64,000 nt of DNA from Octopus vulgaris (lineage: Eukaryota): NCBI GenBank assembly GCA_951406725.2, contig OX597818.1, positions 121,210,001 through 121,274,000 of the forward strand. The letters are read 5' to 3'. This document shows positions 1,082 to 63,228 of this stretch, piece by piece. The notes below the pieces were generated by a model. It worked only from the letters and a program-made list of their open reading frames with translations. It did no database searches and was not told where the DNA came from. The translations under genes were made by a program, and so were the position numbers. Numbering within the stretch: the first letter of the stretch is position 1; each line of letters opens with the position of its first letter.

Positions 1082-1611
1082 AACCAAATTATTTTCAAAT
1101 CACATTTAACTATCAGGTTGCAGAACCTTGTGGAGAAAATTTGTTGGGCTCAGTTCTGTGATTATTTAATGATGACTGTCCAGGGCTTATAACAAAAGAT
1201 GTTTGCCTGAGATATCATGCAGTACGACTGGACCTGAAACCTATTATTACACACTTCACTTTTCACCAATCCTGCATTTCACCCAATTGTCCATTTTATG
1301 TACACACATTCATACACATCACCACCATGGGCATAGTTATCAAGAGAAAGTTTCTGCTATCTAATTCAAAGCCAATGGTCCTGATAGTGTTCCCTCAATT
1401 TCACTGAGTAGTAGCAGGCTTGGTGGAATACCAAGTAGTAGAGGACTTCTATCCCCAGCTAAGACGACTGTCGGAACCTTGGGTTCCATAAGTGAAGCTC
1501 ACTTTGTTGCAAGTCAGAGGCTAGGTGTTTGCCTTGAGGGTAACTTCCTCTCTTCTATCAACTCCAGAAACCCTGAAATATAAAATCATAGCTGTACCTT
1601 GAAATCAAGAG

Positions 1612-2454
1612 GACAGATCCTGTTGTCTACAGCTCTTTCCTGCAATCAGACCTGGACACAATGCAGCAATGGATCACAGACTGGCAACTGAAACTGGCTG
1701 TGGACAAGTGTACCACCATGCATTTTGGGAGAAAAAACCCTGCGTCCACATACTCCCTCCACAACACTGATATCAAGAAATCCTCTTGCGAGCGTGACCT
1801 AGGCATCACTGTCAGCAGTGATTTGCATTGGACAAAGCATATCTCTAAAATTGTCAAGAAGGCCGAGGGTGTCTTGGCATCACTCAGCAAGACTTTTGTT
1901 AGCCGCTCTCCAGCCATCTATTTAAAACTGTATACAGCTATGGTACGACCACACTTGGAATTCGCATCATCAGTTTGGAACCCCTATCTTGCACAGAACA
2001 TTGACCTCCTGGAATCTGTTCAGAGACGTGCAACCAAACGCATACCCTCCATCAGACACCTACCATACTCTGAGTGCCTTGTTTCCCTGGGCATGGATTC
2101 ACTGAAGCTCCGGCATCTGGCGATGGACTTGGTAAACACCCACAAAGTTATCAACCACCTCACCAACAACAACACTGAACACCTTTTTGATCTTCATGTG
2201 TCTAACACACATGGACATACCTACAAAGTCAGAAAACAACACAGCTCCCATGACTTTCGGAAACATTTTTTCACGCTCAGAGTTGCTGAAGCATGGAACA
2301 AACTGCCTGCATCAGTTGTTGACTGCCATGACACTGCATCCTTTAAGGCCCTCATGCTTTCCAAAATCCGCCGAAACTACACCTGATTATACATACATTT
2401 TAGATGAGTTGTAGTGCACCTGAGCACTGTACACAATGTTTTTATTATTAGTAC

Positions 2455-33056: not shown

Positions 33057-35639
33057 TAGCAGTAATACCCGTCGTTCATCGGATAATTACTTTTACTCTT
33101 TCTCAGGAGTCACATTCAAAGTATTATTATTATATATAATAGATTTCTCAACGGGGATTTCAGGGGAGAGTTTCAAGGAGTCGCTGGCGATGTATCGTGA
33201 TGATAAAAAATCCGGCCTGCTAAAATTTGGTTAAAGTGATTCAAACTGCAGACTCAACGCAAAATGGTCACATCTAATTCAAAGCGTTAAAAATGTTATG
33301 AAAACAATTGGTATGTGTTCACAAAGTCCAAACGATTAATACGAAAAAACCTTCCAGGCTACATCCCGAAAATTCATTTCTTTGCCGAATTTCTACAATG
33401 TTTACGGCGATTCGTTTTTATATCTTGATTTTTTATTTTTCATGCAATTTACGCATGCTTGCACGCATGGTGAACACAGTTCAAGTCAAACAGCTGACTG
33501 AGTAAAGTTCACTATTCAATGCATGGGATAAGGCCTAAACAAACACATTATCGATTTTTGCACTTGCGAGATGAATTTCGGAACAAAAATAGCGCAGTTC
33601 AATTTTCATTCGCCTAAACTTTAAGTGACCCATTTTTGGTGGTTCTACGATTTGTTGGCTAGGAGATGTGCCGGGAAGTTAAACACACAAAAATCTGGAT
33701 TCGACTGCAGCTTTTGAGGTGTACAAAACTCAACGAGACCGAGCCGTGAAAATTGAAAAGAAAGAACGCTTCAGTTACGAATACAAAATCGCGGCAAATG
33801 CCAGTAGCAATCCAAAAACCTTCTTTGCCCATGTCCAGCGGAATTCCCGCTTGAACAACCAGATTGCAACGTTGGTAGACTCAACAGGCGTATCGATTGA
33901 GGACCCTTATCAACAGAGTCAATTATTTGCCGAGGCTTTTTCAACTATTTTCAAACAAGATGATGGTCGTGAACCCCCTCCATTTGATAGATCGGTACCT
34001 CCAATGCTTCGATTGGTCATCACGCGGGACGGAGTCAAACGTGTTATTCAAGGCCTCGATGTCAACAAAGGTCACGCCCCTGACGGCATACACCCACGGG
34101 TTATCAAAGCGTTGGCTCCGGTCATCTGCGAGCCCTTAACACGACTATTCAATATGTCATTGGTGACGGGTGTTATACCTGCAGACTGGAGAACAGCGAT
34201 AATCTGCCCAATTTTCAAGAAAGGGAGCCGCGAAGACCCGCTTAACTACCGACCGGTTTCCCTTACATCAATTATCAGCAAGATGTTCGAAACCATCCTT
34301 AAGAAAAGTATGATGCTCCACCTCCTTAACACAGCCTCTATCTCTGATTCCCAACACGGCTTCGTGCCGAAGAGATCATGCTTGACCAACCTACTAGTAA
34401 TGGAAGAATTGGTGACGCGCATCCTCGATGATAGTGATGCTGTTGACATCGTTTTACTGGACATTGCCAAAGCTTTTGACTCGGTAAACCACCGCCTATT
34501 GCTTGTCAAGCTTCAAGCATATAGTTTCCATCCGGATATTGTACGATGGGTTGGTGCCTTCCTCTCAGATCGCTCCTTCCAAGTCCAAGTTAATGGTTCG
34601 CGGTCCGACGTCTCCAGTGCGAGCAGTGGCGTGCCTCAAGGTTCAGTGCTTGGGCCCTTGTTGTTCTTAGTCTTCATAAATGACTTGCCCGACGACCTCA
34701 CGCAACACACCCTTCTATTTGCCGACGATATCAAACTGGTCGCTCCTCGCGGTAATATAGAGGATCTTCGTCGATGCCTCCACCAAATTTGGAAGTGGTC
34801 TAACAATTGGGACCTGTGTCTGAACGTGTCAAAGTGCTGTCATCTGCCTGTCGGCTCTACTCCTGCAACTCAACTTGATTTCGAGCCGGATCGTCTGCTA
34901 CTGGAGAGGACCGATCAGGTAAAGGACCTAGGTATCTTGGTGGATTCCTCCTTTTCGCCTTCGGCCCAGTGCGTCCATGCTGCCAACAAAGCACGCGGAA
35001 TTCTGTTCTTGATTCGACGGTCATTCGGAATGCTCACAGCAGCCATATTCCTACCACTCTATGTCACGCTGGTGAGACCCATATTGGAGTATGGGATTCA
35101 AGCCTCTTCTCCTTATCTCCTCAAAGACATACAGCATCTCGAAAGAGTCCAGAAGCTGGCTACCCGCATGGTTCATGGCCTCAAAAATTTGTCCTACGAA
35201 GAAAGGCTGAGGACGCTCGACCTTTATTCTCTTGAAAAACGCCGCCGCCGTGGTGATCTCATTCTCGCCCACAACATCATAAGCGGAAAGTATAACCTCT
35301 CGAAAGAGCTGTTCTTCACTCCTGCTCCAGAGCGTCGGCTGCGGGGTCATTCCGAAAAGCTCTACCTGCGACGATTTCATCTCAATCGAAGGAGAGGAGC
35401 TTTCTCCGTCCGGGTTGCGGATCCGTGGAACAAGCTGCCAGACGAGATGGTGAAGATGCCGACGACCGCTTTGTTCAAAGCCTCCCTTGACCTCAAGTGG
35501 CCTGAACTCTTTACATGAACACCACCCTGTACTTAACTCCATGTCCCCCTACATGGCCTTGCTATTTGCTTTTGAGCCAAATTAACTAACTAACTAACTA
35601 ACTAACACAGATACACAAATTGAGTTTTATATATATAGA
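33056..35639 (-). mobile_element. Helitron-like element split by a CR1 LINE insertion
   Basis: On the - strand: A|TCtatatatataaaac start at 35639, hairpin ccgatgaacgacggg, CTAG|T end at 33056. Confidence 0.65.
33689..35605 (+). mobile_element. 5'-truncated CR1-group LINE with uninterrupted RT ORF (33719-35518, 599 aa)
   Basis: NYRPVSLTS, QHGF, DIAKAFDSV, GVPQGSVLGPLLF, FADD, LVRPILEY and YEERL motifs; (TAAC)n tail; short aacaca TSD. Confidence 0.92.
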
Positions 35640-57087: not shown

Positions 57088-57138
<51 letters not shown>

Positions 57139-57340
57139 TAGGCACAACTTCATAAGCCAGCCCCATGCTCAATTCGTCCTGTCGAAAGACCCTTGTCCTA
57201 CGTCCTGGTTTTGTTTTGTTGTTTATTTTTTATACTTTATTTTTACCGTTATTGTTTTTACGTTTTTGTATTCTTATTGTTGTCACGTATTCTGTATTTT
57301 TGTTCGTGTACTTCGTTCGTTTTCCGTCCTCGTGTTGTAT

Positions 57341-57487
57341 ACATTCGAAGCTTTCTTCCAGGGGATCTAATGCACTTGGCTTAGATTTCCCGTGGCGGGC
57401 TGCCCATATCGGAGCAATCTCAAGATTAATCAGCCGAAATTGCTAAGATGATCTGGTTCTTGACTGATGACTGAGGGCTTCGAATGT
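57341..57487 (+). ncRNA. Candidate rearranged (permuted) hammerhead ribozyme, copy 1
   Basis: ggcug...agcaaU C ucaaga uuaau cagcc GAA Auugcu...ucuuga CUGAUGA, enclosed by a 15-bp helix (57341-57355 / 57473-57487). Confidence 0.65.
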
Positions 57488-57565
57488 CCCGTCCTGTGGT
57501 TCTTGTGTCGTCTCTGTGGCGTTTCATGTTCTTGTCCATGTCTGTAATTATTTTTACTGTTTACC

Positions 57566-57593
57566 TATATATATATATATATGTATATATGTA

Positions 57594-57632
<39 letters not shown>

Positions 57633-57677
57633 ATATATGTATATATATATATATAAATATATGTATATATATATAAA

Positions 57678-57717
<40 letters not shown>

Positions 57718-57970
57718 TATGTATATATATATGTATATATATATATGTATATATATATATGTATATATATATATGTATATATATGTGTATATATATATGT
57801 ATATATATATATGTATATATATGTGTATATATATATATATATGTGTATATATGTGTATATATATATATGTATATATGTGTGTGTATATATATGTATATAT
57901 ATATGTATATATATGTGTATATATATATATGTGTGTGTGTGTGTATATACATATATGTATATATATATAA
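57566..57970. repeat. (TA)n/(TATG)n microsatellite
   Basis: Directly visible. Confidence 0.95.
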
Positions 57971-58024
57971 TACAAAAAGGGAAAAAACATCCAAACAGAC
58001 GATAGAAAGAAAACAAGGACGGGT

Positions 58025-58167
58025 CATTCGGAGTTTTCTTTCCTCAGTCAAGTTCCAGATTATCTTTGCAATTTCGGCTGGTTATACTCGAGATTGCTCC
58101 AATCTGGTCAGCCCGAAGGAAAATCTATGCTAAGAGCACTAAATTCTTTAGAAGAAAGCCGAGAATG
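58025..58167 (-). ncRNA. Candidate rearranged hammerhead ribozyme, copy 2 (left arm of foldback ~57975-58480)
   Basis: ggcug a ccagauu gg agcaaU C ucgagu auaac cagcc GAA Auugc aaagau aaucugg a acuuga CUGAGGA. Confidence 0.65.
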
Positions 58168-58239
58168 TATACGAAAACAAGGACAAAAAACCGGAGGAAT
58201 GGTACTTCTCCGTTTGTATCCGTCCTTGTTTCCGTATAC

Positions 58240-58380
58240 ATTCGCTGCTTTCTTCTAAGGAATCTAGGGCTCTTAGCATAGATTTTCCTTCGGGATGGCC
58301 AGATTGGAGCAGTCTCGAGTATAACAAGCCGAAACTGCAAAGATAATCTGGAACTCGACTGAGGAAAGAAAACTCCGAAT
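58240..58380 (+). ncRNA. Candidate rearranged hammerhead ribozyme, copy 3 (right arm)
   Basis: agcagU C ucgagu auaac aagcc GAA Acugc...acucga CUGAGGA; compensatory changes versus copy 2; stem II weakened. Confidence 0.55.
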
Positions 58381-58507
58381 AACCCGTCCTTGTTTTTTCA
58401 TGTCCCTTTCTGTGTCATCCAAGTATCTGGATGTTTTGTTGTCGCCTGTTGCGTTCTTGTCCCATTTTTGTATTCTTTTTTATATACATATACACACGCA
58501 CGCACAA

Positions 58508-61915: not shown

Positions 61916-61953
61916 TCTTTCTGTTGAAGAGCGTAGGCTCGAAACGTAAAAGA
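61916..61953 (+). ncRNA. Minimal hammerhead-like motif (U6 variant)
   Basis: ucuuu CUGUUGA a gagc-guag-gcuc GAA A-cg-U A aaaga. Confidence 0.45.
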
Positions 61954-62986: not shown

Positions 62987-63025
62987 ACATTTAACGTTTC
63001 GAGCGGAGCTCTTCGTCAGAAACAT
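62987..63025 (-). ncRNA. Minimal type I hammerhead ribozyme motif with canonical core
   Basis: auguuu CUGACGA a gagc-ucc-gcuc GAA A-cg-U U aaaugu. Confidence 0.65.
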
Positions 63026-63192: not shown

Positions 63193-63228
63193 CTTTCTGT
63201 AGAAGAGCGTAGGCTCGAAACGTAAAAG
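63193..63228 (+). ncRNA. Minimal hammerhead-like motif (U6 variant)
   Basis: cuuu CUGUAGA a gagc-guag-gcuc GAA A-cg-U A aaag. Confidence 0.45.

Follow-up and report, generated by a model that had tools for sequence, protein, structure and literature searches.

A putative hammerhead ribozyme opened between A9 and G10.1 in Penelope-like tandem repeats and Naiad tails of Octopus vulgaris

The window analysed here, i.e., the whole stretch of 64,000 nucleotides of Octopus vulgaris DNA (contig OX597818.1, positions 121,210,001 to 121,274,000 of the forward strand), carries three copies of an RNA motif from two repeat families, A (copy 1) and B (copies 2 and 3). A first-pass annotation had described them as a non-circularly permuted hammerhead with its chain break between A9 and stem II. 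The features of the locus, in window positions, are listed below.

57137..57571, forward strand: 5'-truncated copy of a young family-A unit (positions 85-519 of the 780-nt tandem unit), inserted in (TA)n
57181..57190, forward strand: conserved GUC-GAAA-GAC hairpin motif upstream of the ribozyme, common to families A-D and G
57341..57487, forward strand: putative ribozyme copy 1, intact, including basal helix P0 (57341-55/57473-87)
57358..57395, forward strand: hairpin P0b, directly 5' of G10.1, absent in family F
57398..57402, forward strand: stem II 5' strand (G10.1 = 57398; partner 57431-35), covarying across families
57404..57413, forward strand: helix IV 5' strand (57404-10) and non-bulged strand G-G-A of the predicted kink-turn (57411-13)
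57414..57425, forward strand: block S, with a stem III strand (57414-18), C17 (57419) and a stem I strand (57420-25)
57431..57443, forward strand: block G, with the stem II 3' strand (57431-35), G12-A13-A14-A15.1 (57436-39) and the stem III strand to 57443
57444..57456, forward strand: bulged strand of the predicted kink-turn (3-nt bulge 57444-46, GA 57447-48, U 57449) and helix IV 3' strand (57450-56)
57458..57470, forward strand: stem I 3' strand (57458-63) and CUGAUGA (57464-70); after A9 comes P0, not stem II
57971..58205 (ends approximate), reverse strand: copy 2, a 5'-truncated family-B element; ribozyme 58167-58025, C17 at 58092, core and stems intact
58202..58482 (ends approximate), forward strand: copy 3, a 5'-truncated family-B element; ribozyme ~58239-58380, C17 at 58314, stem II broken

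The hammerhead core is complete in each of the three copies and runs in the order IIa-IVa-[IIIa-UH-Ia]-[IIb-GAAA-IIIb]-IVb-[Ib-CUGANGA], with C17 at 57419, 58092 (reverse strand) and 58314, and CUGANGA at 57464-70, 58047-41 (reverse strand) and 58359-65, in copies 1, 2 and 3, respectively; a check by coordinates thus found all the proposed core parts in place. Also as proposed, this order lies outside types I, II and III, the blocks following each other as S-G-C with stems I and II crossing. The pattern GCCGAAAYTGC-N14-24-GACUGANGA matches three times in the window and never in 100 shuffles, a comparison that rules out chance occurrence of the window motif. In copy 1, stem III pairs 57414-18 with 57439-43, stem I 57420-25 with 57458-63 and helix IV 57404-10 with 57450-56, GAAA occupies 57436-39, and the predicted cut falls at 57419/57420. 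Some details of the initial description had to be amended: stem III of copy 1, drawn with 6 bp, has 5 bp, A57413 and U57444 being assigned to the kink-turn; the helix IV strand ccagauu applies to copies 2 and 3, but copy 1 has CCAUAUC/GAUCUGG with one mismatch; and the stem I strands pair, but with a G-U in copy 2. The stem II given as ggcug/cagcc holds for copies 1 and 2, whereas copy 3 (58293-97/58326-30) reads GGAUG/AAGCC, two substitutions that leave 3/5 pairs and a duplex of -0.5 kcal/mol and mark it as a decayed member of a family with majority GGCUG/CAGCC.

Copy 1 is intact and young, the stretch 57137-57571 being 100% identical over 435 nt to the unit at another locus (L011). Copies 2 and 3 are probably relics; they lie head-to-head at a GTAC palindrome as an inverted pair with arms 93% complementary, so that an RNA spanning both would be one long hairpin. 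A second conserved block (window 57160-57195) precedes the ribozyme by ca. 60-155 nt in families A-D and G and contains the GUC-GAAA-GAC hairpin; B-D and G have a GCC-loop-GGC hairpin ahead of it, and prediction gave no stable joint fold. Elsewhere in the window are minimal type I hammerhead remains of other Penelope-like families, one with an intact core (62996-63019, reverse strand) and two with mutated CUGANGA (61921-61945 and 63197-63221, forward strand), as well as open frames of 611 and 264 codons (33683-35515 and 1592-2383, forward strand) resembling pieces of LINE reverse transcriptases.

Judged from the sequence, stems I and II would be pseudoknots across the long hairpin formed by stem III and helix IV, and the chain would enter and leave between A9 and G10.1 via helix P0. 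Within the core, the stem II strand comes first at the 5' end, and the bases after A9 pair with the 5' flank and not with this strand; in each of the eight A-G groupings, a stem II strand placed 0-2 nt after A9 would make no more than 1/4 of the pairs. Both observations agree with the earlier proposal that the chain is broken between A9 and stem II and that a basal helix, P0 in copy 1, closes the break. The extra 5' hairpin proposed alongside it corresponds to P0b but is optional, the junction at A9/G10.1 being four-way with P0b in families A, B, D and G and three-way in family F. In family B the A9|P0|P0b|G10.1 junction can be closed without a linker; in family N P0 is poorly defined, and in copies 2 and 3 the predicted P0 extends over part of CUGANGA. 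When the core and the stem I/II strands were held free, the nested scaffold of copy 1 kept the active pairs available at 5.7 kcal/mol above the minimum free energy (MFE). The MFE fold differs from the active fold in every isolated copy folded, by 5.7-13.3 kcal/mol with the two pseudoknot helices uncounted. At A9/G10.1, a single additional base is accommodated by a viroid hammerhead. Our literature search found no experimental precedent for a helix at this position, and the accessible portions of PMC10162972, PMC544870, PMC3088659 and PMC13725137 hold nothing on one.

Kink-turns follow a consensus of a 3-nt bulge and then tandem G-A/A-G pairs between two helices. The matching pattern, three bases and GA after stem III opposite GA on the other strand, occurs in families A, B, D, F, G and N; both GA pairs are present in 6/6 family majorities, and 426/444 of their letters are conserved in B, D, G and N. 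With this G and A pattern in place, a predicted kink-turn, new here, would join stem III to helix IV. Helix IV, seen earlier as a bridge, is accordingly better described as the I/II interaction helix of type SGC with a kink-turn joint to stem III.

Family A comprises 2260 candidates (40/40 scored matches 100% identical), arranged as a 780-nt tandem unit whose 3' end is fixed at unit position 519 into (TA)n and whose 5' ends vary. Family B is older (1656 candidates, 90-94%); some of its copies carry a tail of ~35 nt beyond the TATA end, and full monomers begin with the same sequence. Together, A and B make up a multi-thousand-copy, (TA)n-targeting tandem repeat. A core-only pattern gave 75 genome matches vs 1 control match and led to further families, C-G, with tandem periods of 777-785 (A), 775 (D) and 629-674 (F) and an overall unit of ~630-790 nt. 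No coding ORFs were found in the repeat units A-G or their flanks, and an apparent fragment of a Penelope-like element (PLE) at L011 was rejected as a coding piece, having no Pfam match. The insertions have a fixed 3' end, 5' truncation, partial tandems, an inverted truncated copy and a tail of 30-40 bp, traits that the accessible text of PMC8557442 describes for Penelope-like elements (3' end, truncation, tandem or inverted copies, tail). The initial assignment to a Penelope-like terminal repeat thus stands as regards a Penelope-like repeat, but these are non-coding tandem units whose autonomous relatives are Naiads. One array is of mixed composition, a family-D dimer (period 775) being followed 615 nt on by a family-F motif (L110/L120). 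A unit end joined to a unit start was also seen in one contig from four contig-only sequencing runs, which tandem DNA would fit as well as a circle; the RNA status of these runs is a guess, contigs cannot show ends, and we give the observation no evidential weight.

Since the window copies represent just two families, the three of them provide little covariation alone, and the earlier appeal to covariation among them is to be replaced by the genome families, which do covary. We compared 126 of 159 distinct copies, excluding loci L061-L106, which had been selected on a mutation at 15.2, and three small groups (C, E and G2). Over the core region, the majorities of families A, B, D, F, G and N are 51-81% similar to one another, and in 6/6 of them stems I and II are fully paired (5/5 positions) with differing sequences, stem II being GGCUG/CAGCC in A, B and F, GGCCU/AGGCC in D, GGGCA/UGCCC in G and GACACC/GGUGUC in N; stems I, III and IV vary between families in the same fashion. 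The mean number of pairs out of five with the family's own partner vs another family's was 5.0 vs 3.3 for stem II, 5.0 vs 3.47 for stem I, 4.83 vs 3.1 for stem III and 4.67 vs 2.43 for helix IV; as the families are related, such pair counts are non-independent events. The hammerhead core (C3-U4-G5-A6-N7-G8-A9, G12-A13-A14, A15.1-U16.1, H17 and G10.1-C11.1) is present in 6/6 majorities, and only N7 (U, G, A) and H17 (C, A) vary in it. Thus CUGANGA and GAAA, whose loss would have spoken against the proposal, are retained. In families B, D, G and N, eleven core letters are 97.2% conserved against 93.5% overall and 81% for N7. Within family B (n = 31) the pair 16.2/15.2 is GC in 13 copies, AU in 13, GU in 2 and AC in 3.

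A further alignment, A5, held 23 hand-picked A-G copies, mostly those nearest their own family majority. Family N, which MAFFT misaligned with A-G, was left out of it for that reason and treated by anchors. Here 87.9% of the cells were paired, with two-sided change at 15/23 pairs; the paired fraction and the covariation score were reached by 0/500 shuffles, and slid partners gave 13-46%. The count of further pair types showed no excess over shuffles (491/500), and helix IV was paired in only 71% owing to register shifts. Stems I-III flank the core and covary.

An RNA cut at the predicted site and copied from the TATATA 146 nt downstream is expected to leave genomic copies that end at U1.1. We therefore looked for (TA)3 within 30 nt upstream of the stem II 3' strand, and among the matches listed (100 of 5185) read by eye the 27 loci of one contig (C1). 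The 5' ends lay at or 3' of U1.1 in 25/27 of these listed loci, 4 of them exactly at U1.1, and ran past it in 2 (p = 2.6e-7 vs a flat spread). Reverse-strand loci numbered 723 vs 104 for a like pattern over the 30 nt upstream of the site, i.e., ~48 vs 3 per nucleotide, each listed locus appearing once, the control window lying upstream only and the two patterns differing. An independent sample of 43 A-G copies was collected with a pattern lying 3' of the site, three chance matches being discarded; here the first 13 nt 3' of the site contain 10 ends, the second 13 nt contain none and the 27 nt after that contain 2. The picture is less clear-cut for family N (n = 34), where two copies stop 3' of the site, one stops at it, and two that scored as stopping 10 nt upstream resemble internal deletions. 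TA microhomology is available in the AU-rich I/II linker. We consider that the pile-up of 5' ends may be an indirect sign of cleavage in vivo. Most copies run through the site, which suggests that uncut multimers or re-ligated circles also serve as templates. For an Anolis PLE, the accessible part of Frangieh et al. 2024 reports uncut RNA as the main template, internal initiation and a protein-assisted ribozyme, and the role of the ribozyme in Penelope-type transposition is described as unclear in the accessible text of PMC8557442.

According to the accessible text of Eckert et al. 2023 (PMC10085705), the hammerhead can be split into blocks C, G and S, assumed to be uninterruptible, which gives six possible orders; known alignments hold at most 1-2 inserted nucleotides at A9/G10.1, types SGC and CSG come from RefSeq, metagenome and metatranscriptome searches (CSG from two sequences), and a direct link of stem III to the I/II helix is hard to square with the crystal structure. 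The octopus layout resembles SGC/CSG as described there in its cyclic order S-G-C, the short stem I-to-II linker and an extra helix, here helix IV, joining the other, free I/II strands. It differs in having each of the three links between blocks closed and its ends within block C, between A9 and G10.1; in the kink-turn joint between stem III and helix IV; and in its thousands of copies in an animal genome. Block C is not intact, as no stem II strand follows 0-2 nt after A9, and the circular C-G-S order without a I-III pseudoknot of types I, II and III is not found either. Ending inside block C, the layout is none of the six types set out in that text. The predicted layout is thus an S-G-C circular permutation opened inside block C; it passes every sequence test of a hammerhead and appears to stand outside all six named types. 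The question of novelty raised by the initial annotation has a divided answer, as the opening inside block C lies outside the published types but the S-G-C cycle itself is published. We found no description of the layout in the accessible literature; the supplements of Eckert et al. could hold related variants. It is plausible that the kink-turn answers the geometry problem of the stem III to I/II helix link. Rfam returned no match at gathering in the window and no ribozyme among 117 weak matches in five loci, as anticipated by the earlier remark that standard descriptors would miss this arrangement.

Type I hammerheads in the pLTRs of canonical PLEs share the core and likewise sit close to the 3' end of their Penelope-like element, but the octopus layout differs from them by its non-circular order, full-length stem III and extra helices IV and P0. 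Non-LTR retrozymes are, in the accessible part of Li, Clavereau and Pollet 2026 (10.64898/2026.07.22.740005), non-coding tandem units with one hammerhead each, proposed to be non-autonomous PLE derivatives. The octopus repeats are likewise non-coding tandems with one hammerhead per unit, of a length within the 51-972 bp range given there; however, those hammerheads are of type I, which the octopus ones are not, and were found with type I descriptors blind to the octopus layout.

Naiads are reported to be without canonical hammerheads, eight being marked "half core" with no structure given in the accessible text of Craig et al. 2021 (PMC8557442). Part of the 54 consensus records in its supplement was read by eye, and nine of the Naiad consensi read carry the split layout, with unrelated stem sequences, in four phyla.

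Naiad_Ovul and Naiad Obim (molluscs): split layout, with kink-turn
three Acropora Naiads and one Clytia Naiad (cnidarians): split layout
Naiad-2_Movir, Naiad_Plae and Naiad_Bfor (remaining records among the nine; the phyla include an acanthocephalan and a ctenophore): split layout

Naiad_Ovul, marked HHR_half_core, has the same layout and kink-turn in its 3' UTR and shares the (TA)n target, truncation, tandem and inverted copies and tail; families A-G differ in being non-coding and are only 51-55% like the Naiad motif. By the same reading, the junction of Naiad_Plae has no linkers, stem I of Naiad_Bfor is only 2 bp, and the cnidarian, ctenophore and acanthocephalan versions are without the kink-turn. 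Type CSG, published from two sequences, was seen by eye in six other Naiad records (PMC10085705, PMC8557442), two Pristionchus, three Nippostrongylus (all five nematode) and one that by file order is the spider Naiad_Sdum; in this probable spider record a single U is inserted between A9 and G10.1. In the part of the supplement covered, a different conserved 3' motif, starting GGCGGGUG or GACGGGUG, occurs in one Clytia, a bivalve and hemichordate Naiads (PMC8557442).

A motif taken from the octopus Naiad consensus in print is matched exactly 187 times in the genome and never in the control. Among loci with Naiad reverse-transcriptase (RT) remnants (RVT_1 below cut-off, E 2e-4), 5/7 have an N ribozyme 1.0-1.9 kb downstream (one only partial), and among more distant RT loci an N-like motif is present in 6/12 and an A-G motif in 0/12. 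No intact Naiad was found among 140 RT matches, the longer ones nearly all having stops, and a more distant partner could escape; nor did we find an A-G-type ribozyme behind an ORF, families A-G showing no GIY-YIG and RT ORF upstream of the tail. The locus L220:854-3502 (forward strand) holds an open frame of 883 codons with RVT_1 and, at its C-terminus, a weak GIY-YIG match, i.e., a near-intact canonical PLE beside a Naiad tail, and at L259:519-675 an inverted pair of truncated family-B copies is nested in a Naiad RT remnant. As the link between A-G and Naiads rests on shared architecture, kink-turn included, and TA target, we consider their relationship likely. The layout probably explains part of the "missing" Naiad ribozymes.

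Taken together, the earlier interpretation is supported overall: the sequences argue for a non-circularly permuted hammerhead with its break between A9 and stem II in a Penelope-like repeat. With a probability of roughly 0.8, we regard the motif as a cis-acting hammerhead of new topology, residing in non-coding, retrozyme-like tandem retroelements of the Penelope class and in Naiad tails. The kink would bring helix IV back to the stem I and stem II tips, replacing the usual loop I/loop II contact, and the RNA would cut itself 3' of H17, which is 57419 in copy 1. Reverse transcription by a Penelope-type enzyme may then start ~146 nt downstream, at the TATATA site and on a nicked (TA)n target, so that cut templates would yield short copies ending at the cut and uncut multimers or re-ligated circles would yield read-through copies and tandem arrays.

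It seems unlikely that the motif is a hammerhead-derived RNA signal that does not cut, e.g., a binding site for a retroelement protein, with the pile-up produced by RT drop-off and TA microhomology. The difference between MFE and active folds would fit such a signal, as would the many junctions on AT/TA letters of the linker and the comparison window that lies upstream only; however, the stems change fully while all catalytic letters are kept except N7 and H17, the latter being G in no case; the 5' ends show a sharp step at U1.1; and the upstream window also offers AT microhomology, yet has far fewer loci. L7Ae/Snu13-type proteins bind kink-turns, and a U-U at 3b/3n characterises box C/D kink-turns. 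The U-U at 3b/3n in families D and N, together with the alternative P0 pairing that hides the core in B, could point to a hammerhead cutting efficiently only with help, whether in dimers or in trans between tandem units, from a kink-turn-binding protein or from a protein of the element. A protein-assisted PLE hammerhead (Frangieh et al. 2024) and dimers of minimal PLE hammerheads are indeed known from the accessible literature. We hold this to be quite unlikely, as the stems are full length and close within one monomer, and the cnidarian, ctenophore and acanthocephalan versions do without the kink-turn.

The S and G blocks and CUGANGA do stand in SGC order, and in family N 3/4 loose pairs are possible after a shift of 1-2 nt, so one might read the motif as the published type SGC, with stem II made from the bases right after A9 and the upstream GGCUG incidental. 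This is very improbable given that the upstream strand pairs 5/5 and covaries (CG/GC, UA/CG/AU, GC/UA/AU/CG), and the canonical SGC reading was ruled out by the missing stem II pairs after A9. As for a chance resemblance within a repeat family, it would be in keeping with the lack of an Rfam ribozyme match, but covariance models cannot score the rearranged order, and the excess of core-only matches over the control, the covariation in four helices and the recurrence in four phyla make it exceedingly improbable.

Returning to the cis-acting hammerhead, a more far-reaching reading is possible, although we see it as doubtful: a seventh hammerhead layout, opened inside the catalytic core and active in vivo, which along with CSG would be the unrecognised ribozyme of many Naiads across animal phyla, made protein-gated in the octopus by its kink-turn and processing a 780-nt circular RNA that is still active and enters the genome through rolling reverse transcription. 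The layout contradicts the explicit assumption on which the "six possible" hammerhead orders are based, as one helix, even two, would be hung between A9 and G10.1, and the kink-turn suggests how stem III may be linked with the I/II helix, a geometry that the accessible text of Eckert et al. called unexplained. The step in 5' ends would provide a genome-only readout of ribozyme cutting in Penelope-type transposition. Moreover, orders invisible to descriptor searches offer a possible answer to why Naiads, among the most abundant retroelements of invertebrates, seemed hammerhead-free.
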